From NCBI RefSeq assembly GCF_003018235.1, contig NZ_CP027437.1: a stretch of DNA of 64,000 nt. One strand, 5' to 3'. The notes beneath the pieces were generated by a model. The model saw only the letters and a list, made by a program, of their open reading frames with translations. It was not told the origin of the DNA and searched no databases. Both the position numbers and the translations under genes were made by a program. Numbering within the stretch: position 1 is the stretch's first letter; each line of letters opens with the position of its first letter. Positions 1,204 to 47,309 of this stretch are shown here, one piece after another. Source of the stretch: Escherichia coli. Lineage in GTDB: Bacteria > Pseudomonadota > Gammaproteobacteria > Enterobacterales > Enterobacteriaceae.

Positions 1204-3126
1204 ATGACCGTGTATTCAGCGGGAGGTCCGCGCATGCCTGAGCCGGAAGAAGAACAGGCATTCACTGAAGAGGTGAACAGCGCCTTTTCCGGGCTGCCTC
1301 GTTTTGTGTCTGTAAAGCTGGGGCGCAGGATCAGCAGCGCATGGCAGACAAAGGGTTTTGCCGGTGCACGGGAAAAATTTGCGCTGATGGTTCAGAAGGA
1401 TTTGCCGTTCATTACCGGGGTGAATAAACGTTATGCCATTAATCCGGATGAATTACCGGGGTGGCTGTTTGGTGGGCTGGCATCTGATCAGGCATACGGT
1501 GCGGTTCATTCCATGACCTGGCGATTTAATGCCATGGTGGATGGTGACGACGGGGATGCGCATTTACTGGCTCAGGATCTGTCCGTGTTTCTTATTGCTG
1601 AAATGCAGCACCTGAGTGTTCTTCTTGCGGATGAAGATGCGGATGCGGCGGCAGATGCCATTTATGCCATGGTTGCCGGGCTTGTTGAGCATTTCCGGAT
1701 GGAGCCACCGGACTGGAAGCGTTTTATTGGCAGAAAGCTGACACTGGAGCAACTGACTGTTGCCATCAGCCGGATGCTGAGTGTTCGCTGGTGGCAGGGA
1801 AAACTCAGGGCATTCTCCCGTCGCTGGCGTGAACATCTGCTTATAGCTATGGGTGTCGTTCGTCGGCAGTCTTCACCGCACTGCAGTTATGAATGGGTGC
1901 AGAGGTGGCTGGCGGGGCGTAAGCACGGTCGAAGGCTGATGGCGGAAACGGACGTTGAGGATGAAGAAACAGGAGAAAGATTTTCACTTCTCGATTTGGT
2001 TGACAGCAGCATTTCAGATGCGGAGAAACGCCGCGCAGAGCTGATGACCAGGGTTAAGGGGCTGGAAGATTTAGCCCGTTTTGAAGGTGTGGCGCAGGAG
2101 CAGGGGTATATCGGGCTTTTTTTCACGATGACCGCGCCATCAAAATATCATGCCTGGCTGGAGACAGGATATCGCAATCGTCGTTATAACGGCGCAAGCC
2201 CGAAAGACACACAAAATTATTTCTCCGGACTCTGGCGTCAGATCAGTGCAACGCTGAGGCGCAGGGGGATCGGGATTTTTGGATTAAGAAGTGCCGAACC
2301 GCATCATGACGGAACGCCGCACTGGCATGGTGTTCTCTATGTGCATCAGGAGCATGCTGCCGCCTTACAGGACATTCTTGAGTATTACGCCAACCGCGAT
2401 GATGACGCGGGAAAAACGCCCATCCGCAAAGCAGGAAGAAAATCCCACCTGGAAATAAAACCGGTTCTTGATGATCTGGGGAGTGCCTCTGCCTATATCG
2501 CCAAGCATATTGGAATGAATCTTGACGGTTGTGCGCCAGGCGGAATGAATCATGAAACGGGCCATACACTGGTGGTCACTGCCCGCCACGCCTCGGCGTG
2601 GGCGTCATTATGGGGGATCAAGCAGTTTCAGTTTATAGGCAGCACACCGGTAAGTGTATGGCGTGAGCTGCGTCGCTTTAACAATCAGGCTCATGCTGAC
2701 CGGATAAGCCCGGCGCTGGGTGAGTTACACCGTGCAGCCAGTGAGGGTGACTGGAAAACCTATACCAGGCTGCAGGGTGGACCGTTTGTGGCACGAAGAG
2801 ATCTGGTCCTTCGCACATGGTATCAGCGTTCGGAGGAGCCGGATGAGTGTGGGCTACACACCAGTGCGATCAAAGGTGTTTATATGCCGGGGCGTGATAC
2901 GCCACCGGTAGTGACGCGTTCACGTAACTGGAGGATCACCCGGAACGTTACAACAGGCGCTCTCAATGTTAACCGGGGGTCTGCTTTAACGCCCTGGACT
3001 TGTGTCAATAACTGCATTTCGGGCAGAAAACGACCAGATGGTCATCCTCCGGATCCAGGTATAAGGATCCCTGTTCAACTGGAACTGAACTTCGGGGAAG
3101 AGAATAAAGGGAAAAGTGAGCAGTAA
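1204..3126 (+). CDS. phage replication initiation endonuclease, HUH rolling-circle type (P2/186 gpA-like)
   Basis: 640-aa ORF with GGGAGGA RBS; HUH motif set FFTMTAP, PHWHGVLYV and YIAKHIG in canonical order. Confidence 0.7.
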   Translation: MTVYSAGGPRMPEPEEEQAFTEEVNSAFSGLPRFVSVKLGRRISSAWQTKGFAGAREKFALMVQKDLPFITGVNKRYAINPDELPGWLFGGLASDQAYGAVHSMTWRFNAMVDGDDGDAHLLAQDLSVFLIAEMQHLSVLLADEDADAAADAIYAMVAGLVEHFRMEPPDWKRFIGRKLTLEQLTVAISRMLSVRWWQGKLRAFSRRWREHLLIAMGVVRRQSSPHCSYEWVQRWLAGRKHGRRLMAETDVEDEETGERFSLLDLVDSSISDAEKRRAELMTRVKGLEDLARFEGVAQEQGYIGLFFTMTAPSKYHAWLETGYRNRRYNGASPKDTQNYFSGLWRQISATLRRRGIGIFGLRSAEPHHDGTPHWHGVLYVHQEHAAALQDILEYYANRDDDAGKTPIRKAGRKSHLEIKPVLDDLGSASAYIAKHIGMNLDGCAPGGMNHETGHTLVVTARHASAWASLWGIKQFQFIGSTPVSVWRELRRFNNQAHADRISPALGELHRAASEGDWKTYTRLQGGPFVARRDLVLRTWYQRSEEPDECGLHTSAIKGVYMPGRDTPPVVTRSRNWRITRNVTTGALNVNRGSALTPWTCVNNCISGRKRPDGHPPDPGIRIPVQLELNFGEENKGKSEQ

Positions 3127-3533: not shown

Positions 3534-4613
3534 ATGCAGGCGATCCTGACGGTATTCCCGCAGCGTAATGCCGGGATAACACTGATGAAAACAGGTAATC
3601 TGACAGCGCGGTTCAGGGACGGGCAGAGAATAATGATAAGGGATGTTCCGTCTGTGATGGCTGGGATGCCATCAGGAGAAATTCCGTCATCAGGACAGAG
3701 GCTGGCGGAAGAGGAAGGACTGACGGCTTTCTTTGCTGACGGAAGGGTAATAAAGCGTGCTGGTGGCAGTGATGCCATGGCGCGTTGGGTGAGCAGGATT
3801 GCAGGCTGCCAGTGTGAGAATGGTGATCACGTGGAGAACATGACAACAGCGCGGACAATGCAGGGAGAGGCGCTTCGGTTATGCCATGCCTGTGATAATC
3901 ATCATTATATGAAAGGATATCGGGCGCTGGCAGATGTGGCAGCCAGAAATCGTGCAGAATGGCTGATGGATTATATCAGGATGAGTCTGGGGCTGGGGGA
4001 AGATCATCAGGTGACCATTCCTGAGTTGTTTTGCTGGGCAGTGCTGAATGATGTGGCAGATGCTGTTCCGGTTATGATCGTAAGGCGTATCAGACAATTG
4101 CCGGAAGAGGAAAAGCTGAGCGGCACGATGAAAGAAGCAGATATTAATCCCTGGCAGACATCAGCAGGCACAGTGGTGAAGAAACTGGCAGATAATGCGA
4201 AGAGCGTTAATGTGTGCAATGTGCGGGTCAGACATGCAGTACGCCAGGAAGAACACAAAGAAATGGAAAAACCGGTGCTGAAACTTGTTGCAGACAGTGA
4301 TCCGGCTGCGGGCTATATGAGGAAGCCCAGAATGCAGCGGCTGTCTCTGCCGGGTTATACCTCGTGGGTGAAGCGTCAGCGATGCTGTGGATGCGGGAAA
4401 CCTGCAGATGATCCGCATCACATCACCGGGCACGGTTTTGGTGGTGCAGGGATAAAAGCCAGTGATTTGTTTGTGATCCCGCTGTGTCGGCAATGTCATC
4501 AGGAATTACACAATGACAGCAAGGCATGGGAGGAGAAAAACGGCAGTCAGTTGCTGTGGGTGATAAGGACGCTGGACAGGGCAGCGGGCATTGGCGCTTT
4601 AGTTGGGGGGTAA
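3534..4613 (+). CDS. Cys/His-rich prophage protein, resembles YdfU/DUF968 family (from memory)
   Basis: ATG with AGAGGTGGGG RBS; C-terminal CCGCGKPADDPHHITGHGFGG...IPLCRQCHQELHN zinc-binding-like cluster and internal CQCENGDH...CHACDNHHY cluster; size about 359 aa. Confidence 0.4.
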   Translation: MQAILTVFPQRNAGITLMKTGNLTARFRDGQRIMIRDVPSVMAGMPSGEIPSSGQRLAEEEGLTAFFADGRVIKRAGGSDAMARWVSRIAGCQCENGDHVENMTTARTMQGEALRLCHACDNHHYMKGYRALADVAARNRAEWLMDYIRMSLGLGEDHQVTIPELFCWAVLNDVADAVPVMIVRRIRQLPEEEKLSGTMKEADINPWQTSAGTVVKKLADNAKSVNVCNVRVRHAVRQEEHKEMEKPVLKLVADSDPAAGYMRKPRMQRLSLPGYTSWVKRQRCCGCGKPADDPHHITGHGFGGAGIKASDLFVIPLCRQCHQELHNDSKAWEEKNGSQLLWVIRTLDRAAGIGALVGG

Positions 4614-4614
4614 C

Positions 4615-5319
4615 ATGACACCGCAACAGATGGTATGGGCGAGAGAGCAGGTTATTTTTGCACTGAATCCACCGGATAAACGTCAGAAGGGGCAACTGGA
4701 GGCATTTGGTGATTTTGCCAGGTCAGACACCAGGCGTTACGGGAGGCAGAGAAACAGGACACTGAACATTGATGGCCGGTGGTATTGTCAGGATGGTGAT
4801 CCGGTACATGCTGCGGCAACAGCCTGTTATGCAATACAACCGGATATGATCACCAGGGAAGCGTTCAGAACGGCACAACTGAGGAGGAGGATTTATTGTC
4901 TGGAGGATTATCATCGGGCCTGGGTGTTATTCAGTTACAGCTTGCAGAAAAAACGAATACACCATCTTCTGGTCAGTGAGTACATCTGGATGAGGATGTT
5001 CGAGCGGTTGCAGGGGAAACGGGTTACGGACAGGATGACAGGAAATCTGATTGAAATAGCGAGGATGGCTGCATGGAATGCTGCAGTGACAGCCGGTGGG
5101 ATTGTTGCAGGTAAGGTTCTGATTGCTCCTTCATGTGCGGCGCAGATTGCAGGTGTAAAACCAAACACATGGAGTCAGCATTACAAGGCTCACTGGTGTT
5201 TTATGCATGAAGTATGCGATGAACTGGATCATGAGGCGCTGGTGACCATTACAGGAATAAAAAATCACCAAAAAAACGGCGAAAAATATAAATTTGCTAA
5301 AGTGAATATTTTAAGGTAG
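4615..5319 (+). CDS. hypothetical protein, candidate Q-type late antiterminator (by position and size only)
   Basis: Start 1 nt after upstream stop; 234 aa; followed immediately by promoter-like hexamers and a strong intrinsic terminator, as for Q/PR-prime/tR-prime. Confidence 0.3.
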   Translation: MTPQQMVWAREQVIFALNPPDKRQKGQLEAFGDFARSDTRRYGRQRNRTLNIDGRWYCQDGDPVHAAATACYAIQPDMITREAFRTAQLRRRIYCLEDYHRAWVLFSYSLQKKRIHHLLVSEYIWMRMFERLQGKRVTDRMTGNLIEIARMAAWNAAVTAGGIVAGKVLIAPSCAAQIAGVKPNTWSQHYKAHWCFMHEVCDELDHEALVTITGIKNHQKNGEKYKFAKVNILR

Positions 5320-5862: not shown

Positions 5863-6930
5863 ATGACGCATGTTGTAAAAATATCAGAAAGTGAACTGGT
5901 CAATGCTGACTGCCTGGAATTTATACACACGTTGCCAGATGACAGTATTGACCTGATCGTTACCGATCCACCGTACTTTAAAGTGAAACCCAATGGCTGG
6001 GATAACCAGTGGAAGGGTGATGAAGATTACCTGAAGTGGCTGGATCAGTGTCTTGCGCAGTTCTGGCGGGTGCTGAAACCTGCCGGAAGTCTTTACCTGT
6101 TCTGTGGCCATCGCCTGGCATCTGACATCGAAATCATGATGCGTGAACGCTTTAATGTGCTGAACCATATTATCTGGGCGAAGCCGTCCGGACGCTGGAA
6201 CGGATGCAACAAGGAAAGCCTGAGGGCGTATTTCCCGGCCACAGAGCGCATTCTGTTCGCGGAACACTATCTGGAGCCGTATCGCCCGAAAGATGATGGT
6301 TATGAGGCGAAGGGCAGGGCACTGAAACAGCATGTGATGGCACCGCTGATTTCTTACTTTCGTGATGCGCGTGCCGCCCTTGGGATAACGGCAAAACAGA
6401 TTGCTGATGTCACAGGAAAGAAAAACATGGTGTCGCACTGGTTCAGTGCCAGTCAGTGGCAGCTGCCGAACGAAAGCGATTATCTGAAATTACAGGCGCT
6501 GTTTGCCCGGGTGGCAGAAGAGAAGCATCAGCGCGGAGAACTGGAAAAGCCACACCACCAGCTGGTGGTAACGTATACCTCACTGAACCGGCAGTATGCG
6601 GAGTTGCTGAGTGAATACAAAAATCTGCGCCGGTATTTTGGCGTGACGGCGCGGGTCCCGTACACCGATGTGTGGACGCACAAGCCGGTCCAGTTTTACC
6701 CGGGTAAACACCCCTGTGAAAAACCGGCGGAGATGCTGCGGCAGATAATTTGTGCGAGCAGCCGTCCTGGTGACATGGTGGCGGATTTCTTTATGGGGTC
6801 GGGCTCAACCATAAAAGCCGCTATGGCGCTGGGGCGTCGTGCAATTGGTGTTGAACTGGAAGAGGAACGTTTTGCGCAGACCGTGAAAGAGATTAGTCAT
6901 ATCCTGACAGGCTCAATTGATGACGGATAA
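5863..6930 (+). CDS. orphan DNA amino-methyltransferase (N6-adenine/N4-cytosine, beta-class motif order)
   Basis: TDPPYF (motif IV) near N-terminus and FFMGSGST (motif I) near C-terminus; no adjacent restriction endonuclease. Confidence 0.8.
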   Translation: MTHVVKISESELVNADCLEFIHTLPDDSIDLIVTDPPYFKVKPNGWDNQWKGDEDYLKWLDQCLAQFWRVLKPAGSLYLFCGHRLASDIEIMMRERFNVLNHIIWAKPSGRWNGCNKESLRAYFPATERILFAEHYLEPYRPKDDGYEAKGRALKQHVMAPLISYFRDARAALGITAKQIADVTGKKNMVSHWFSASQWQLPNESDYLKLQALFARVAEEKHQRGELEKPHHQLVVTYTSLNRQYAELLSEYKNLRRYFGVTARVPYTDVWTHKPVQFYPGKHPCEKPAEMLRQIICASSRPGDMVADFFMGSGSTIKAAMALGRRAIGVELEEERFAQTVKEISHILTGSIDDG

Positions 6931-7380
6931 GGATGGATAAAGACATGGTCAGTTCAGGATGCGAAGCAAGTAAACAGATAAGGCTATAAAAAAAACTGAC
7001 AGTAGAAAAATAGCTTTTTCCCAGGTATTCATGAACACAATCTCTTAAAAGCGCCCGCTGATACCAGCGGGCAATACATACTGGCATTGATGTTAAGTTT
7101 ACAGGTTTCATTTATCGTATCGTGCGACACGACGTTGTTATGTTAATAAGTGTGATTTTTGATGTGAAATGTTTGTTGCGTGTTTTTTGATGGGTTTCTC
7201 ATTTTTCAGGCATCATCTCGTCACTGATGTGCAGCACAGCGATGAGGTGCTACTACTTCCACGGAGCGGATTTTGTCTTTTTTGTGGGTGGTAAAAATCT
7301 CCTTATAGCAGGATGTGATAATTATTTATCAGTATAATCTTATGAGATTGACGCGATTTCTCCGGATTTGTTAGAAGATC

Positions 7381-7420
7381 ATGCATGGTGAATCCACCTC
7401 AGCGGTGGGTCATAATGACC
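7381..7420 (+). repeat. about 40-bp conserved motif, copy 1 (GCATGGTGAATCC-hairpin-CATAATGAC)
   Basis: 33 of 40 identical to copy 2 at 7940-7979. Confidence 0.5.
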
Positions 7421-7456
7421 GCCTGTTCGCCGGTTCAATCCCTGCGGGGGCCACCA
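7404..7456 (+). pseudogene. degenerate tRNA: ileX/ileZ-like 3-prime half (CAT anticodon, T-arm, GGGGGCC-A-CCA) lacking a pairing 5-prime acceptor strand
   Basis: 3-prime half aligns closely to E. coli ileX recalled from memory; no 5-prime sequence can pair with the acceptor 3-prime strand. Confidence 0.4.
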
Positions 7457-7457
7457 T

Positions 7458-7534
7458 GCGCCGTTAGCTCAGCTGGACAGAGCAATTGCCTTCTAAGCAA
7501 TCGGTCACTGGTTCGAATCCAGTATGGCGCACCA
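7458..7534 (+). tRNA. tRNA-Arg (anticodon TCT, reads AGA)
   Basis: Cloverleaf folded by hand: 7-bp acceptor stem, perfect 5-bp anticodon stem ATTGC/GCAAT, loop CTTCTAA, T-loop TTCGAAT, encoded CCA. Confidence 0.85.
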
Positions 7535-7535
7535 T

Positions 7536-7610
7536 GCGGTCATCGTATAATGGCTATTACCTCGGCCTTCCAGGCTGATGATGCGGGTTCGATTCCAGCT
7601 GGCCGCTCCA
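7536..7610 (+). tRNA. tRNA-Gly (anticodon TCC), glyT-like with one T-stem mismatch
   Basis: 75 nt, near-identical to E. coli glyT recalled from memory; anticodon loop CTTCCAG; acceptor stem with one G-U; T-stem GCGGG/CCAGC has a G-A mismatch. Confidence 0.7.
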
Positions 7611-7630
7611 TAGAGGATTATGGGGACTGT

Positions 7631-7768
7631 ATGTTGAGTATTTTTCTGCGTTACCTTTCATCGGTAAAAATAAACACACAACAACTATTTATGCTGGCAT
7701 TAGCAATGATAGTTATTGGTTTTCTCGGAACTTGTTTATTTATTTACTATATTTTTGTCGATAATTAA
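7631..7768 (+). CDS. small hydrophobic peptide ORF (45 aa, MLSIFLRYLSSVKINTQQLFMLALAMIVIGFLGTCLFIYYIFVDN)
   Basis: ATG ORF in AT-rich spacer after tRNAs; one predicted TM helix; weak RBS. Confidence 0.25.
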   Translation: MLSIFLRYLSSVKINTQQLFMLALAMIVIGFLGTCLFIYYIFVDN

Positions 7769-7939
7769 TATTTTTAGTATTTAGCCAGAGTGGCCCAAAC
7801 AGAAAATAAAGTTACTGTGAAACAGGGGGGCCTAATAAAAATAATCACCACTAAATTCGGGGCTTTAAAAATGCTAAGAACATCACATTTCATTATGCCG
7901 GGTACTGGAGAATAACATGATGTTTTGTTAAAAATGATT

Positions 7940-7979
7940 TTGCATGGTGAATCCCCCTGTGCGGCGGGGCATAATGACA
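7940..7979 (+). repeat. about 40-bp conserved motif, copy 2
   Basis: See copy 1; a partial inverted copy (GGTCATTGCAG...CACCATGCAG) lies at about 8021-8064. Confidence 0.5.
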
Positions 7980-8321
7980 GATGTTTGGTTGCGTATTGTA
8001 TAGGCAAGTTGCGGATTCTGTCTGGTCATTGCAGAATTCACCGGGAGGCACCCGGCACCATGCAGATAATTGTTTTGTGGATGATAATACCAGCCCCTCT
8101 CCGGAGGGGCTTTCTTATGGGCGAAAAAAAGCCCGGGGAGCCGGGCAATAGCATGAGATATACGTTTTTATAGACGTACAGATTTTAATCAGAATTTATG
8201 GGGCTGCGCAACTGCGTGGCCTTTTTTGTTTTGTGGGCTAAGGTTTTCCCCTTTGATTCGCCATGTGGCTGAACCTGTAGCCCGCCACTGTTCAGACGCA
8301 ATCCCGGCAAGGGGAGGAATA

Positions 8322-10349
8322 ATGGCATTTAAACACTACGATCTGGTCTCTGCCAGCAGCGGTGATGAACTGCAAAAGAAACTGACAGAAAAAATAAATG
8401 AAGGGTGGCAGCCATACGGTTCGCCGCTTGTTTCGTATGACGATAACGGGATGAAAATTATTCAGGCCATTGCAGCAGAGGGTGATGTCAGGATCCCGGT
8501 TGAAACGCCTGATGATGGTGGTGATTCACCGGTCACAATGACCTCCGGTGCACCTGATTATTATTATGTTGTTGTGCTTGCCGGACAGTCCAACGGCATG
8601 GCCTACGGTGAGGGGCTTCCGTTACCGGACTCTTATGACCGCCCGGACCCGCGCATTAAACAGCTGGCACGCCGCAGTACAGTGACGCCGGGTGGGGACG
8701 CCTGTGCATACAATGATGTGATTCCGGCTGACCATTGTCTGCATGATGTACAGGATATGAGCGGTGTTAATCATCCGAAAGCGGACCTGAATAAGGGGCA
8801 GTATGGCTGTGTCAGTCAGGGGCTGCATATTGCCAAAAAACTGCTGTCGTATATCCCGCAGAATGCAGGGATACTTCTGGTGCCCTGCTGCCGTGGTGGT
8901 TCTGCATTCACCACCGGGGCTGACGGCACATTCAGTGAGGTCACCGGCGCATCCGCTGACGCTGCACGCTGGGGTGCCGGTAAACCCCTGTATCAGGACA
9001 TGGTCAGCCGGACAAAAGCGGCGCTGGCCAAGAACCCGAAAAACAGGCTGCTGGCGGTGGTATGGATGCAGGGCGAGGCAGACCTTGCGTCAGGCAGTCA
9101 GCAGCATAACGGGTTATTCACGGCCATGGTTCAGCAGTTCCGGACTGACCTGTCCTCACTTGCTGCGCAGTGCGTGAGTGGCAATGCTGCCACGGTGCCG
9201 TGGATTTGTGGTGATACCACGTATTACTGGAAGGCCACTTATGGCACACAGTATGAAGCCATTTATGGAGCCTATAAGAATCTGTCCGCACAGAATATTT
9301 TCTTTGTACCGTTCCTGACAGATGAAAACGGCGCAAACACGCCAACGAACCAGCCAGCGGAAGACCCGGATATTGTGGCTGTGGGGTATTACGGTGCGGC
9401 ATCACGAACACAGGCGAACTGGACGACAGCGCAACGTGACAGCCATTTCAGCACCTGGGCGCGTCGCGGCATCATTTCTGACCGCCTTGCGTCAGCTATT
9501 CTGGTGCACGCGGGACGTACGTCAGGTTTCATTACCGGTGAAGTTTCTTCTCCGGACACTGCATCCGGTGACGGTGGTTCGTCCACTGATGCGGGTACGG
9601 ATGCGGGGACCGGCACTTCCGGAACAGGAAGTGATGACGCTACCGGAACGACACCAGCCACCGCTGCCATTATTCTGAGTGCAGACGGAGGGGATGTTTC
9701 GGCACAGGGCTGGACGGTGGAAGGCACCACGGTGACCACCACGGCAAACACGGTGACTTCATCGGGTGAGGCGCTGGCGCAGAATGTGCTGAGTGTTCCG
9801 AAACAGAGCGGGGCAGCATGGAAGCTTGTTCATACCACCACAGATGAGCCAGCGGAACTGCTGAACAATGGCGGTGAGTTCCTGTGTCGTTTCCGTATCA
9901 CGGATACTGCCATTGCTGAGGGGCGTTATGCCTTTGGTCTTTACTGGCTTCCGGACGCACAGAAGATACCAGCCGGTGCGACATTCAATAAAACAGGAAG
10001 CGGGATGTCCCCGTCCATGCTCAACTTCTATGTCCAGACGGATGGCAGCAACATAAACCTGTTATCACACTGCAGTACGAAGAGTGCAGGGAATCTGAAG
10101 ATTGGCTCATTCGGTGCATTTAACAATGAATGGCATACCTTCCGTCTTCGCTACCATGGTGGCAATACGGCAAGAGCAACGGTGACGCTGGACAGTCAGG
10201 TGGTGGGAGATATAACGCTGTTATGTGCGCCGTCAGCGGCCAGTGCCGGTGACACTCTGTCGATGATAAGTATCACATCGGGTGATACATACAGTATTGA
10301 AGTGGAAAGCCTGAGTGTGACGGTGAACGGGGCTGCGGCAGCGGCGTGA
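8322..10349 (+). CDS. prophage sialate O-acetylesterase-like protein (NanS-p-like) with long C-terminal Thr/Gly-rich domain
   Basis: GGGGAGGAATA RBS then ATG; SASA-type catalytic motif VLAGQSNGMAYGEG; N-terminal region resembling DUF1737; position equivalent to the esterase gene downstream of stx in Stx phages. Confidence 0.6.
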   Translation: MAFKHYDLVSASSGDELQKKLTEKINEGWQPYGSPLVSYDDNGMKIIQAIAAEGDVRIPVETPDDGGDSPVTMTSGAPDYYYVVVLAGQSNGMAYGEGLPLPDSYDRPDPRIKQLARRSTVTPGGDACAYNDVIPADHCLHDVQDMSGVNHPKADLNKGQYGCVSQGLHIAKKLLSYIPQNAGILLVPCCRGGSAFTTGADGTFSEVTGASADAARWGAGKPLYQDMVSRTKAALAKNPKNRLLAVVWMQGEADLASGSQQHNGLFTAMVQQFRTDLSSLAAQCVSGNAATVPWICGDTTYYWKATYGTQYEAIYGAYKNLSAQNIFFVPFLTDENGANTPTNQPAEDPDIVAVGYYGAASRTQANWTTAQRDSHFSTWARRGIISDRLASAILVHAGRTSGFITGEVSSPDTASGDGGSSTDAGTDAGTGTSGTGSDDATGTTPATAAIILSADGGDVSAQGWTVEGTTVTTTANTVTSSGEALAQNVLSVPKQSGAAWKLVHTTTDEPAELLNNGGEFLCRFRITDTAIAEGRYAFGLYWLPDAQKIPAGATFNKTGSGMSPSMLNFYVQTDGSNINLLSHCSTKSAGNLKIGSFGAFNNEWHTFRLRYHGGNTARATVTLDSQVVGDITLLCAPSAASAGDTLSMISITSGDTYSIEVESLSVTVNGAAAAA

Positions 10350-11995: not shown

Positions 11996-12529
11996 ATGAA
12001 CGCAAAAATCAGATACGGCCTGTCGGCTGCCGTTCTGGCGCTGATTGCCGCAGGGGCTTCTGCGCCAGAAATCCTTGACCAGTTTCTGAATGAAAAAGAA
12101 GGTAATCACACCACGGCATACCGTGATGGTGCGGGTATCTGGACCATCTGCCGTGGTGCCATTCTGGTGGACGGTAAGCCTGTTGTTCCCGGCATGAAGT
12201 TGTCGAGGGAAAAATGCGACCAGGTTAACGCCATCGAACGTGACAGGGCGCTGGCATGGGTGGAGAAAAACATCAAAGTGCCGCTGACCGAACCGCAGAA
12301 AGCGGGGATTGCGTCATTCTGCCCGTACAACATCGGTCCTTCGAAATGCTTCACCTCAACGTTTTACCGGAGACTGAACGCCGGAGACCGTAAGGGGGCA
12401 TGTGCTGAAATCCGTCGGTGGATATATGACGGTGGCAGGGACTGCCGTATCCGCTCAAACAACTGCTACGGTCAGGTATCCCGGCGTGACCAGGAGAGTG
12501 CGCTGGCGTGCTGGGGTATCGACAGATAA
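11996..12529 (+). CDS. SAR endolysin (lysozyme, phage-21 R-type)
   Basis: N-terminal signal-anchor-release helix LSAAVLALIAAGASA followed by lysozyme catalytic region EGNHTTAYRDGAGIWTICRG. Confidence 0.8.
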   Translation: MNAKIRYGLSAAVLALIAAGASAPEILDQFLNEKEGNHTTAYRDGAGIWTICRGAILVDGKPVVPGMKLSREKCDQVNAIERDRALAWVEKNIKVPLTEPQKAGIASFCPYNIGPSKCFTSTFYRRLNAGDRKGACAEIRRWIYDGGRDCRIRSNNCYGQVSRRDQESALACWGIDR

Positions 12530-22746: not shown

Positions 22747-23163
22747 ATGTTTCTGAAAACGGAACCGTTTGAATATAACGGGCAGACTGTCACGCTCAGC
22801 GAACTGTCCGCCCTGCAGCGCCTCGAGTATCTGGCCTGGGTGAAGGAGAAGGAAGAACAGCGGGGGGAGGGTGTCAGTGAACAGCAGGCGCTCACTGACA
22901 TCATCAGCGAAGGTGCCCTGCTGGTGGCCATGTCGCTCTGGCATCACCATGAGCTGAACGGAGCGTCATCCTCACTGCGTGAAGAGACGGACAGGCTCAT
23001 GCAGGAAGTCCTGACCTCCTGGCCGGTGGAAGCCATCGCCGCAGGCCGGAACGTGGTGGCACGTCTGAGTGGTATGTCGGCTCCGGCAGGTGAAAAATCC
23101 CCCGCTCAGGGGGGTAAAACAGACGAACCGGTAACGGCAAAAAAGCGTACGAAGGGGAGCTGA
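22747..23163 (+). CDS. tail assembly chaperone G
   Basis: 138 aa, lambda G position; ends ...VTAKKRTKGS. Confidence 0.7.
   Translation: MFLKTEPFEYNGQTVTLSELSALQRLEYLAWVKEKEEQRGEGVSEQQALTDIISEGALLVAMSLWHHHELNGASSSLREETDRLMQEVLTSWPVEAIAAGRNVVARLSGMSAPAGEKSPAQGGKTDEPVTAKKRTKGS
23139..23145 (+). other. programmed -1 ribosomal frameshift slippery heptamer A_AAA_AAG giving the G-T fusion
   Basis: Heptamer in G frame 7 codons before stop; -1 frame stays open to 23471. Confidence 0.6.
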
Positions 23164-32665: not shown

Positions 32666-33859
32666 ATGCCAGTACAGATTTCAGGTGTGCTGAAGGATGG
32701 TACAGGAAAACCGGTACCGGAGTGCACCATAGAGCTGAAAGCCGTGAGAACCAGTGAGACGGTGGTGGTCACCACGGTGGCGGAGTGTCAGCCGGGGGAA
32801 ACAGGCAGTTACAGCATGCAGGTTGAGCCGGGGCGTTATCGTGTGACCCTGTGCGTGGAAGGTCGCCAGCCAGCATATGCCGGAGAGATTGATGTCATGG
32901 CAGACGACAAACCGGGTACCCTGAATGCCTTTCTGCTCCGTGAAACGGATGCTGCGTATTACCCTGATGCACTGAAGAAACTGGAAGCGGCGGCGGATGA
33001 GGCTGTGCGCAGGGCGCGGGAAGCTGCTGAGAAAGCGGAAACTGCCGTGGGGCCACAGGGGCCAAAGGGAGATAAAGGCGAGAAGGGGGAGCAGGGGCCA
33101 AAGGGTGATAAGGGAGACACCGGTGCACAGGGGCCGAAGGGAGAAACCGGCGCTAAGGGTGACAAAGGTGATACAGGCCCCGCAGGTCCGAAAGGTGAGC
33201 GGGGCGACCCTGGCGGCCCACAGGGGCCAAAAGGGGATACGGGAGCCGCAGGTCCGGCAGGCCCACAGGGGCCGAAAGGGGATACCGGAGCCACAGGCCC
33301 GGCAGGCCCACAGGGACCAAAAGGAGATACCGGAGCCGCAGGTCCGGCAGGCCCACAGGGACCGAAAGGAGATACAGGAGCCACCGGTCCGGCAGGCCCA
33401 CAGGGACCGAAAGGAGATACGGGGGCCGCAGGCCCGGCAGGCCCACCGGGACCGAAAGGAGATACCGGAGCCACTGGTCCGGCAGGCCCACTGGGACCGA
33501 AAGGGGATACGGGAGCCACCGGTCCGGCAGGTCCGCAGGGGCCGAAAGGCGATACCGGAGCCACCGGTCCGGCAGGTCCGCAGGGTCCGGCGGGAAGTTC
33601 TGACAGCGGGTTGTTTGGCGTCGGTTCTTTTGTTCTTGCAGCGTATTACCCGACGAGTTACTCGGGGGACATGCCACCGGGCACAACTGTTGCCGGGTCA
33701 TCACTGTCTGCATGCTGCCTTTCGAATGGTACTCCCCTGATTGCGTCCGGTAATGTGGGGGAAACCCGTTTACCGGGGACGTGGCGTGCATGTGGTCCGT
33801 TAATATGGACATCTGCTGCGGGTATCAGACAGGCAGGATTATTTCAGCGCATATCATGA
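32666..33859 (+). CDS. side tail fibre protein (Stf-like) with collagen-like Gly-X-Y repeats
   Basis: N-terminus [17 protein letters not shown] matches lambda Stf N-terminus; about 160 aa of GPKGDTGA-type triplets. Confidence 0.75.
33040..33600 (+). repeat. tandem 45-bp (15-aa [15 protein letters not shown]) collagen-like repeats inside stf
   Basis: Repeated nucleotide unit read directly; generates spurious ORFs on both strands. Confidence 0.7.
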
Positions 33860-39153: not shown

Positions 39154-39214
39154 CCTAAAGAATCAAGACGATCCGGTACGCGTGATTTTCTTTTCACATT
39201 AATCTGGTCAATAA

Positions 39215-39243
39215 CCTTGAATAATTGAGGGATGACCTCATTT
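39215..39243 (+). promoter_or_regulatory. sigma32 heat-shock promoter of clpB (CCTTGAA, 14-nt spacer, CCTCATTT)
   Basis: Match to sigma32 consensus CTTGAAA / CCCCATNT. Confidence 0.6.
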
Positions 39244-39282
39244 AATCTCCAGTAGCAACTTTGATCCGTTATGGGAGGAGTT

Positions 39283-41856
39283 ATGCGTCTGGATCGTCTT
39301 ACTAATAAATTCCAGCTTGCTCTTGCCGATGCCCAATCACTTGCACTCGGGCACGACAACCAATTCATCGAACCACTTCATTTAATGAGCGCCCTGCTGA
39401 ATCAGGAAGGGGGTTCGGTTAGTCCTTTATTAACATCCGCTGGCATAAATGCTGGCCAGTTGCGCACAGATATCAATCAGGCATTAAATCGTTTACCGCA
39501 GGTTGAAGGTACTGGTGGTGATGTCCAGCCATCACAGGATCTGGTGCGCGTTCTTAATCTTTGCGACAAGCTGGCGCAAAAACGTGGTGATAACTTTATC
39601 TCGTCAGAACTGTTCGTTCTGGCGGCACTTGAGTCTCGCGGCACGCTGGCCGACATCCTGAAAGCAGCAGGGGCGACCACCGCCAACATTACTCAAGCGA
39701 TTGAACAAATGCGTGGAGGTGAAAGCGTGAACGATCAAGGTGCTGAAGACCAACGTCAGGCTTTGAAAAAATATACCATCGACCTTACCGAACGAGCCGA
39801 ACAGGGCAAACTCGATCCGGTGATTGGTCGTGATGAAGAAATTCGCCGTACCATTCAGGTGCTGCAACGTCGTACTAAAAATAACCCAGTACTGATTGGT
39901 GAACCCGGCGTCGGTAAAACTGCCATCGTTGAAGGTCTGGCGCAGCGTATTATCAACGGCGAAGTGCCGGAAGGGTTGAAAGGCCGCCGCGTACTGGCGC
40001 TGGATATGGGCGCGCTGGTGGCTGGGGCGAAATATCGCGGTGAGTTTGAAGAACGTTTAAAAGGCGTGCTTAACGATCTTGCCAAACAGGAAGGCAACGT
40101 CATCCTGTTTATCGACGAATTACATACCATGGTCGGCGCGGGTAAAGCCGATGGCGCAATGGACGCCGGAAACATGCTGAAACCGGCGCTGGCGCGTGGT
40201 GAATTGCACTGCGTAGGTGCCACGACGCTTGACGAATATCGCCAGTACATCGAAAAAGATGCTGCGCTGGAACGTCGTTTCCAGAAAGTGTTTGTTGCCG
40301 AGCCTTCTGTTGAAGATACCATTGCGATTCTGCGTGGCCTGAAAGAACGTTACGAATTGCACCACCATGTGCAAATTACTGACCCGGCAATTGTTGCAGC
40401 GGCGACGTTGTCTCATCGCTACATTGCTGACCGTCAGCTGCCGGATAAAGCCATCGACCTGATCGATGAAGCAGCATCCAGCATTCGTATGCAGATCGAC
40501 TCAAAACCAGAAGAACTCGACCGACTCGATCGTCGTATCATCCAGCTTAAACTGGAACAACAGGCGTTAATGAAAGAGTCTGATGAAGCCAGTAAAAAAC
40601 GCCTGGATATGCTCAACGAAGAACTGAGCGACAAAGAACGTCAGTACTCCGAGTTAGAAGAAGAGTGGAAAGCAGAGAAAGCATCGCTTTCTGGTACACA
40701 GACCATTAAAGCGGAACTGGAACAGGCGAAAATCGCTATTGAACAGGCTCGCCGTGTGGGTGACCTGGCGCGGATGTCTGAACTGCAATACGGCAAAATC
40801 CCGGAACTGGAAAAGCAACTGGAAGCCGCAACGCAGCTCGAAGGCAAAACTATGCGTCTGTTGCGTAATAAAGTGACCGATGCCGAAATTGCTGAAGTGC
40901 TGGCGCGTTGGACGGGGATTCCGGTTTCTCGCATGATGGAAAGCGAGCGCGAAAAACTGCTGCGTATGGAGCAAGAGCTGCACCATCGCGTTATTGGTCA
41001 GAACGAAGCGGTTGATGCGGTATCTAACGCTATTCGTCGTAGCCGTGCGGGGCTGGCGGATCCAAATCGCCCGATTGGTTCATTCCTGTTCCTCGGCCCA
41101 ACGGGTGTGGGGAAAACTGAGCTTTGTAAGGCGCTGGCGAACTTTATGTTTGATAGCGACGAGGCGATGGTCCGTATCGATATGTCCGAGTTTATGGAGA
41201 AACACTCGGTGTCTCGTCTGGTTGGTGCGCCTCCGGGATATGTCGGTTATGAAGAAGGTGGCTACCTGACCGAAGCGGTGCGTCGTCGTCCGTATTCCGT
41301 CATCCTGCTGGATGAAGTGGAAAAAGCGCATCCGGATGTCTTCAACATTCTGTTGCAGGTACTGGATGATGGGCGTCTGACTGACGGGCAGGGGAGAACG
41401 GTCGACTTCCGTAATACGGTTGTCATTATGACCTCTAACCTCGGTTCCGATTTGATTCAGGAACGCTTCGGTGAACTGGATTATGCGCACATGAAAGAGC
41501 TGGTGCTCGGTGTGGTAAGCCATAACTTCCGTCCGGAATTCATTAACCGTATCGATGAAGTGGTGGTCTTCCATCCGCTGGGTGAACAGCACATTGCGTC
41601 GATTGCGCAGATTCAGTTGAAACGTCTGTACAAACGTCTGGAAGAACGTGGTTATGAAATCCACATTTCTGACGAGGCGCTGAAACTGCTGAGCGAGAAC
41701 GGTTACGATCCGGTCTATGGTGCACGTCCTCTGAAACGTGCTATCCAGCAGCAGATCGAAAACCCGCTGGCACAGCAAATACTGTCTGGTGAATTGGTTC
41801 CGGGTAAAGTTATTCGCCTGGAAGTTAATGAAGACCGGATTGTCGCCGTCCAGTAA
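39283..41856 (+). CDS. clpB: chaperone ClpB; internal GTG at 39727 for the short isoform
   Basis: 857 aa with two AAA+ modules ([16 protein letters not shown]); internal GTG with GGAGGTGA RBS. Confidence 0.97.
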
Positions 41857-42297: not shown

Positions 42298-43839
<1,542 letters not shown>

Positions 43840-43924
43840 CCTTAAAGAACTGTGCTTTGCAGTGCTCACACAGATTGTCTGATGAAAAGTGAAAAGCAAG
43901 GCGTCTTGCGAAGCAGACTGATAC

Positions 43925-44000
43925 GTCCCCTTCGTCTAGAGGCCCAGGACACCGCCCTTTCACGGCGGTAACAGGGGTTCGAATCCCCTAGGGGACGCCA
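43925..44000 (+). tRNA. gltW: tRNA-Glu (anticodon TTC) in 16S-23S spacer
   Basis: Exact E. coli tRNA-Glu sequence GTCCCCTTCGTCTAGAGGCCCAGGACACCGCCCTTTCACGGCGGTAACAGGGGTTCGAATCCCCTAGGGGACGCCA. Confidence 0.98.
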
Positions 44001-44203
44001 CTTGCTGGTTTGTGAGTGAAAGTCACCTGCCTTAATATCTCAAAACTCATCTTCGGGTGACGTTTGAGATATTTGCTCTTTAAAAATCTGGATCAAGCTG
44101 AAAATTGAAACACTGAACAACGAAAGTTGTTCGTGAGTCTCTCAAATTTTCGCAACACGATGATGAATCGAAAGAAACATCTTCGGGTTGTGAGGTTAAG
44201 CGA

Positions 44204-47097
<2,894 letters not shown>

Positions 47098-47189
47098 ACA
47101 ACGCCGAAGCTGTTTTGGCGGATGAGAGAAGATTTTCAGCCTGATACAGATTAAATCAGAACGCAGAAGCGGTCTGATGAAACAGAATT

Positions 47190-47309
47190 TGCCTGGCGGC
47201 CTTAGCGCGGTGGTCCCACCTGACCCCATGCCGAACTCAGAAGTGAAACGCCGTAGCGCCGATGGTAGTGTGGGGTCTCCCCATGCGAGAGTAGGGAACT
47301 GCCAGGCAT
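47190..47309 (+). rRNA. rrfG: 5S ribosomal RNA
   Basis: 120 nt TGCCTGGCGGC...GCCAGGCAT. Confidence 0.97.

Follow-up and report, generated by a model that had tools for sequence, protein, structure and literature searches.

The last gene of a small tRNA array in the late region of an Escherichia coli prophage is an ordinary, host-derived tRNA-Gly(UCC), already annotated in RefSeq, and the particular allele carried there is probably an impaired, decaying copy of host glyT. The window, by which we mean the whole stretch of 64,000 nucleotides that was analysed (assembly GCF_003018235.1, contig NZ_CP027437.1), places this gene directly behind an intact tRNA-Arg(UCU) and the remnant of a tRNA-Ile gene (Table 1). 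While the identity and origin of the Gly gene are evident at the level of sequence, its expression, processing, and loss of function are what we infer.

Table 1. Features of the prophage late region and its tRNA array (positions are those of the window; L numbers designate the related loci and alleles used for comparison)
Feature	Position	Strand	Basis
P2 gpA-like replication protein	1204-3126		Pfam
Antitermination protein Q	4603-5319	+	Pfam PF06323, 97.3 bits; annotated Q in homologous prophage L015
N6/N4 DNA methyltransferase, immediately upstream of the array	5863-6930	+	Pfam PF01555, 150.4 bits
ileZ-like tRNA-Ile(CAU) relic	7384-7457	+	Aligns to the 3' half of Ile(CAU) in L006, L007 and 933W ileZ
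tRNA-Arg(UCU), intact, argO-like	7458-7534	+	ARAGORN (tct); Rfam 69.3 bits; 69/77 vs 933W argO
tRNA-Gly(UCC), glyT-derived prophage copy	7536-7610	+	ARAGORN (tcc); Rfam RF00005; 70/75 vs host glyT
STnc100-family sRNA element, preceded by the tRNA array and followed by the esterase gene	7912-8122	+	Rfam RF02076, 145.6 bits
NanS-p-like esterase (DUF1737 + SASA + DUF6645)	8226-10349	+	Pfam; in 933W follows stx
Lysozyme	11996-12529		Pfam

ARAGORN and Rfam agree, to the exact coordinates, on the tRNA-Gly(UCC) that the first-pass annotation had placed at 7536-7610. The gene matches RF00005 over the full length of the model (positions 1-71/71) at 46.6 bits, above the gathering score of 29 bits and as expected of a bacterial elongator tRNA, with E-values of 8.5e-7 in a search of the whole window and 5.3e-9 in a local search; on the strength of these scores and E-values, a chance origin is excluded. 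It encodes its own CCA end, has U73 as its discriminator, and retains the UCC anticodon in the covariance-model alignment, so that the anticodon first assigned to it stands unchanged at a score above threshold. With the thrU-tyrU-glyT-thrT-tufB locus (L013) as the reference for host glyT, 70 of 75 positions are identical (93.3%), which places the gene within a family defined by at least 90% identity and a UCC anticodon. PGAP annotates the identical 75-nt allele as tRNA-Gly without a pseudogene flag. The alternative that the feature is a chance tRNA-like sequence, or merely a part of a spurious open reading frame, draws on an overlapping, ATG-started frame of 127 aa at 7385-7768; that frame, though, crosses both tRNA genes and the tRNA relic. 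The Gly gene has precise ends and resembles glyT over its full length, and its homologues carry the annotation tRNA-Gly in many genomes and phages. This alternative is vanishingly improbable and is refuted by ARAGORN, Rfam, and the identity to glyT.

The five substitutions that separate the allele from host glyT, given here in canonical tRNA numbering, fall in the acceptor stem, the anticodon arm, and the T stem. G5U and C68G together convert an acceptor pair into a U5.G68 wobble, A29G creates a G29.U41 wobble in the anticodon stem, A38G alters the anticodon loop, and C63A produces a G51.A63 mismatch in the T stem. The G-A mismatch and the acceptor G-U pair that had been described initially are thus both real, whereas A29G and A38G had been overlooked. 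Two non-standard pairs are flagged by the covariance-model alignment, G51.A63 and the D-stem U13.U22, the latter being native to host glyT as well, so that the four stems of the allele do not consist of standard pairs throughout. Elsewhere the canonical features persist: U8, A14, G18 G19, U33, the T-loop TTCGA, and an anticodon loop of 7 nt are all kept, with the caveat that C32-G38 pairing within this loop is predicted at P = 1.0. In E. coli, glycyl-tRNA synthetase (GlyRS) recognizes its substrate through U73, G1-C72, C2-G71, G3-C70, C35, and C36. All of these identity elements are present in the allele, as read off its sequence and its alignment with glyT.

The first-pass annotation had counted the Gly gene as the third tRNA of an array of three. 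Over the whole window ARAGORN reports three tRNA genes, and only two of them, Arg and Gly, are adjacent on the + strand, separated by a spacer of 1 nt; the presumed first member, at about 7384-7457, is an ileZ half-gene that neither ARAGORN nor Rfam calls. Its recognizable part extends only from the anticodon to the 3' end (CATAA...GGTTCAATCC...GGGGGCCACCA), the 5' half having been exchanged for a segment resembling the STnc100 5' end, to which a weak match starts at 7355. In the neighboring Arg(UCU) gene, by comparison with 933W argO, the acceptor-stem changes are compensated. Among the arrays of IMG/VR contigs, many ARAGORN calls of the form '???', with abnormal anticodon loops, lie between Ile(CAU) and Thr or Arg genes, which suggests that such arrays regularly include tRNA genes in partial decay.

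The segment fused to the relic bears on a separate matter, the STnc100 element downstream, which is conserved at the same position in the relatives L002-L007 and in one of them is followed directly by a match to AgvB, an anti-GcvB sRNA (L004 1298-1357). About 40 nt (GCATGGTGAATCC.CC...GG.CATAATGAC) occur twice in the window, once fused to the ileZ relic (7355-7457) and a second time at the 5' end of STnc100. The terminal helix of STnc100, GCAUGGUG/CACCAUGC, resembles the CACCA-TGC junction that recurs between the tRNA genes of the array, a resemblance which suggests that STnc100 may itself descend from a tRNA-array junction.

The surrounding element is a lambdoid prophage with a Stx-phage-like late region and is stx-negative. 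Q and the DNA methylase lie on one side of the array and the NanS-p-like esterase and the lysis genes on the other, with Gly as the last tRNA gene between the Q region and the lysis genes, the position that is typical of its family. The closest annotated counterpart is a prophage at the pheA/raiA site of NZ_CP076709.1 (L015, 2.97-3.01 Mb), which shares the gene order of the window prophage at 96-99% identity; the clpB-raiA host flank is 99.3% identical to that of the same strain, E. coli O158:H23 CFIAFB20140388. A second prophage of NZ_CP076709.1, the closest complete genome, at 1.15 Mb, matches at 100% over 601 nt and was considered as the counterpart, but the tRNA-Ser and hya genes downstream of it do not fit, and BLAST led to the pheA/raiA prophage instead. 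These two prophages (L014, 1.14-1.18 Mb, beside tRNA-Ser/hya, and L015 at pheA/raiA) have near-identical late regions, and both carry the Gly allele of the window unchanged; a single D-loop base distinguishes their Arg genes, and their early regions differ. Because P2-type and lambda-like genes occur together, the element is a P2-like/lambdoid hybrid: the homologous annotated prophage encodes Cox-family and ogr/Delta-like zinc-finger proteins alongside lambda-like Q, lysis, head, and tail genes, and in the window, matches to isrK and C4 antisense RNA (641-838) lie just upstream of the P2 gpA-type gene.

Several further features of the window lie outside the array. In the tail-fibre gene region, at 33212-33589, BLAST against the related prophage gives an overlapping ladder of matches offset by about 45 nt, the mark of a tandem repeat. 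Toward the end of the gene for tail chaperone G, an A-rich run at 23080-23110 (GGCAAAAAAGCG) is a likely -1 frameshift site for a G/GT fusion; in the homologue, PGAP labels the T gene that follows 'incomplete', an artefact that programmed frameshifting probably introduced into the annotation. The idea that tRNA-Gly(UCC) acts at a lambda-type G GGA AAG frameshift site was rejected, the prophage part of the window having no GGGAAAG and the G/T overlap an AAAAAAG run. Host features comprise the RyfD sRNA upstream of clpB and an rrn operon with 16S, tRNA-Glu, the StyR-44 spacer element, 23S, and 5S (39164-39302, 42298-47307).

Genes derived from glyT are widespread among phages of this kind. Of 5,426 complete E. 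coli genomes, 5,420 contain host glyT, and the 75-nt query matches 6,616 places in those 5,420, about 1,190 of them beyond the host gene and up to 6 in a single genome. A pattern scan of IMG/VR recovered at least 120 contigs that carry a glyT-derived Gly(UCC). The 120 matches listed all have a phage-like context, never the host operon and never an adjacent tyrU, and in nearly all of them Gly(tcc) is the last gene of its array, behind a variable set of upstream members (Ile-CAU, Lys, Thr, Arg-UCU, Arg-CCG, His, Ser, Gln, and many aberrant ARAGORN calls). Deposited phages with such a gene number about a dozen and include phi467, JLK-2012, SerU-LTIIb, vB_EcoM-606R7, 689R5, 683R6, PhiR47_1, and Yersinia YeP1-3, where it is mostly annotated as tRNA-Gly, and annotated relatives of the window array combine Arg-Gly, Thr-Arg-Gly, Ile-Thr-Arg-Gly, Ile-Arg-Gly, Ile-Thr-Gly, and Asn-Gly. 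Comparison with the tRNA sets of related prophages thus identifies glyT-derived Gly(UCC) as a common terminal member of lambdoid arrays. The suggestion that it represents a different cargo set is correct insofar as the array departs from the ileZ-argN-argO set of 933W; the presence of a Gly gene as such is not unusual. A literature search on ileZ/argN/argO and on prophage tRNA-Gly and tRNA-Thr returned nothing specific to the window array, and when phage records were queried with just the Arg gene, distant full-length matches ranked first, with Stx phages not among the matches listed.

The source of the phage Thr-Gly module can be read from its most faithful copies. The Thr(UGU) genes of phi467 and L009 are identical to host thrU at 76/76 positions, the Gly(UCC) of phi467 is identical to host glyT at 75/75, and a gap of three bases stands between Thr and Gly in place of tyrU and its spacer. 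Given the identity to thrU and glyT and the lack of tyrU between them, the module represents a capture from the tRNA cluster of the host tufB operon.

Once captured, the gene has kept its cloverleaf in the family as a whole. Of the 120 IMG/VR matches listed, 49 are identical to glyT, 28 have a compensated U6-A67, and 19 have a compensated U5-A68; in 96 of the 120, no new stem mismatch or wobble has arisen, the native U13.U22 aside. When the 32 distinct alleles gathered for comparison are aligned, standard pairs make up 95.5% of the cells, and covariation with both sides changed is seen at pairs 5:68, 6:67, and 50:64, at a score reached by none of 500 shuffles. This family-wide maintenance of the cloverleaf argues that intact copies of the glyT-derived phage gene are used. 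What they may be used for is suggested by codon demand, which we assessed by comparing the annotated coding sequences of the homologous prophage L015 (10,458 codons; 96-99% identical to the window) with 14,779 codons of neighboring host genes. Both of the codons named at the outset, GGA and AGA, are more frequent in the prophage: GGA stands at 16.1 versus 7.7 per 1000 (odds ratio 2.1, p = 8e-10) and AGA at 6.8 versus 1.1 (odds ratio 6.3). The same holds for GGG (21.2 versus 9.9, odds ratio 2.2), AGG (8.3 versus 0.7, odds ratio 12), ATA (8.6 versus 2.4, odds ratio 3.6), and ACA (15.7 versus 6.8, odds ratio 2.3). Most of these codons are read by tRNAs that rank among the most frequent in such arrays, and the match makes codon supplementation a reasonable role for the family. 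For Gly the case is modest, its codons being less enriched than those of Arg and Ile.

Against this background of well-kept copies, the window allele stands out by its condition. Host glyT and the phi467 gene score 64.9 bits with the Rfam model, YeP1 64.8, and alleles whose only change is U5.G68 62.7; the window allele is 18 bits below glyT. Its 46.6 bits fall among copies with several mismatches, below L010 (53.7), L009 (52.9), and L003 (51.6), close to L006 (46.2), L005 (45.1), and L008 (42.8), and not far above the more damaged L002 copy (39.3), which PGAP leaves unannotated. Folding with ViennaRNA, which ignores tertiary contacts and base modifications, returns the cloverleaf for glyT, for the U5.G68 allele (L004), and for the U5-A68 allele (YeP1). 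For the window allele (z of -0.6, versus -2.6 for glyT), the minimum-energy fold has no T arm and a 7-bp anticodon stem closed by a 3-nt loop, with the cloverleaf lying 3.3 kcal/mol higher; the mean pair probability in the T stem is 0.13 versus 1.00 for glyT. Single changes introduced into glyT reproduce these effects in the predictions, the T-stem pairs dropping from a mean probability of 1.00 to one of 0.04 with C63A alone, and P(C32-G38) reaching 1.0 with A38G alone.

The affinity of EF-Tu for tRNA is set by the T-stem pairs 49-65, 50-64, and 51-63, with G51-C63 the tightest (PMC3239215). EF-Tu binding also protects Gly-tRNAGly from deacylation by DTD (PMC5409826). An alternative that we regard as unlikely is that the allele is a fully working tRNA-Gly(UCC) whose defects are tolerated and which is kept by selection for the GGA/GGG-rich prophage genes. 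In one tRNA in which it was measured, an A.C mismatch at 51-63 barely altered EF-Tu binding, at a cost of only 0.2 kcal/mol (PMC3239215). Furthermore, the allele is called by ARAGORN, Rfam, and PGAP alike, and it retains the GlyRS identity elements, U33, the anticodon, the T-loop, and CCA. Its 75 nt recur unchanged at four prophage loci, distributed over the window genome and two or more RefSeq genomes, while the flanks have diverged by about 4%. The prophage uses GGA and GGG at about twice the host level, and G38 also occurs in alleles with perfect or compensated stems (L137, L141), where it may suit function. These points are countered by the score, by a predicted fold in which the T arm is missing and the anticodon loop closed, by the modest enrichment of Gly codons relative to Arg and Ile, and by the intact stems that are the norm among the phage copies listed.

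The history of the A63 lineage speaks to both sides. It is rare, comprising 2 IMG/VR contigs in addition to the window type and L003, and a compensating change at G51 was never found among its carriers, which have instead gathered further stem defects: C2A (L118), U5.C68 (L153), and U6.G67 (L003). At 5:68, U.C, U-A, and U.G are all seen on the A63 background, and this acceptor pair may have been repaired after C63A, which would imply continued selection. Taken together, the defects of the allele and the destroyed ileZ alongside it point to relaxed selection and decay. Of the two possibilities raised by the first-pass annotation, supplementation of rare-codon decoding fits the family, and a decaying duplicate better describes the window allele, in view of its score, its predicted folding, and its lineage; impairment and decay are accordingly the reading toward which we lean.

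A further alternative holds that A29G and A38G are adaptive, having been selected to escape some OLD-like or other tRNA-cleaving nuclease of a defence system or competitor, and that lambdoid late-region arrays are mainly anti-defence cargo rather than a codon supplement. Phage tRNAs are known to replace host tRNAs cleaved by defence nucleases and to resist cleavage through changes in the anticodon loop or stem (PMC10264068; PMC12445682). The preferred substrates of P2-OLD have A37 and, at 28-30 and 40-42, paired CNG motifs, and a Thr(UGU) resistant to this nuclease occurs in lambdoid phage 21 (PMC12445682). Host glyT, read by the same rule, has the features of an OLD substrate (C28-A29-G30 / C40-U41-G42 and A37), A29G falls within one of these CNG motifs, A38G recurs on at least four acceptor-stem backbones, and the Thr(UGU) genes of the relatives L003 and L007 lack one CNG motif. 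In these two genes (L003 530-605, L007 529-604), the 3' strand of the anticodon stem reads TCATC in place of the TCAGT of host thrU, a loss that parallels the OLD-resistant phage tRNA-Thr (PMC12445682). The window allele itself, though, retains both CNG motifs (C28-G29-G30 / C40-U41-G42) as well as A37 and thus lacks the signature of the only published resistance rule. The T-stem mismatch and the acceptor wobble would also be left unexplained. G38 is rare, with 18 viral contigs against at least 120 that match the general A38-permitting pattern, and most G38 alleles also bear clearly harmful changes such as U8C and G10A. In the papers searched on tRNA-targeting defence, no nuclease for tRNA-Gly(UCC) was found, and a paper on Schlafen defence does not mention Gly. 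Nuclease evasion is for these reasons very unlikely to account for the allele.

The course of events that we favor, ending in impairment and decay of the Gly gene, would then run as follows. The gene was captured from host glyT and stands at the end of an array that now consists of the ileZ relic, Arg(UCU), and Gly(UCC). Transcription of such arrays would be part of that of the late operon, and host processing enzymes would release the individual tRNAs. On the + strand, a promoter scan gave no convincing sigma-70 site upstream of the window array, and sites resembling promoters were not enriched relative to shuffles; for this reason, we infer transcription of the array from the 933W annotation. 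The likely role of the arrays is an extra supply of tRNAs for ATA, AGA/AGG, ACA, and GGA/GGG, the codons favored by phage genes, and they may also buffer against tRNA-targeting defence systems, as work on other phage tRNAs suggests. In the window allele, C63A breaks the G51-C63 pair of the T stem, and A38G would let C32 pair with G38 and U33 with A37, closing the anticodon loop, both changes being predicted to be harmful. The allele would thus add little or nothing to decoding, beside an intact Arg(UCU) and a destroyed Ile gene.

The locus illustrates that calling a tRNA gene in a prophage does not establish that the tRNA works. Host-derived tRNA genes in lambdoid late-region arrays range from perfect copies to half-genes, and RefSeq annotates the window allele as a normal tRNA-Gly, which is relevant to models of codon supplementation or tRNA-based defence evasion in Stx-like prophages. 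Were it true that the anticodon-arm changes confer nuclease resistance, the locus would point to a new nuclease that targets tRNA-Gly(UCC). Beyond such bookkeeping, the finding on the Gly gene matters little.

Among known systems, the nuclease-resistant phage tRNAs, namely, the tRNA-Thr(UGU) of phage 21 and T5-like phages that withstand P2-OLD and the mycobacteriophage tRNAs that withstand VapC, share with the window gene the status of a phage-borne duplicate of a host tRNA with an altered anticodon arm. They differ from it in that the window allele keeps both CNG motifs and has a T-stem defect to which they offer no counterpart. A second parallel is phage 933W, in which Q, pR', qut, terminators, and a putative tRNA promoter precede ileZ-argN-argO, followed by stx2AB, the SASA esterase, the holin (S), and the lysozyme (R). 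The window array fills the corresponding position, with Q before it and the SASA esterase, holin, and lysozyme after it; its Arg(UCU) is homologous to argO (69/77), and its relic matches ileZ over the 3' half. In addition, window positions 7924-8348 match the 933W region just downstream of stxB at 70% DNA identity. In contrast to 933W, ileZ is destroyed, argN is absent, Gly(UCC) has been appended, and Q is separated from the array by a methylase gene; nor does the window prophage contain stx, or an intact ileZ-argN-argO set upstream of it.

The ancestor, host glyT (tRNA-Gly2 of the thrU-tyrU-glyT-thrT-tufB operon), has the D arm including U13.U22, the anticodon, the variable loop, the T-loop, U73, the first three acceptor pairs, and CCA in common with the window allele. 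It lacks the U5.G68, G29.U41, G38, and A63 of that allele, whose cloverleaf is lost in predictions, and it resides among tyrU, thrT, and tufB, whereas the window gene lies in a prophage without them. The closest relatives in arrangement are the arrays of temperate enterobacterial phages (phi467, JLK-2012, SerU-LTIIb, vB_EcoM-606R7, YeP1-3), where a glyT-derived Gly is likewise the terminal gene, between the antiterminator and the lysis genes. In the phage Thr(UGU)-Gly(UCC) arrays the upstream partner is Thr, in place of the Arg(UCU) and Ile relic of the window, and most copies of the Gly gene are identical to glyT or compensated, whereas the window allele belongs to a rare, uncompensated A63/G38 lineage.
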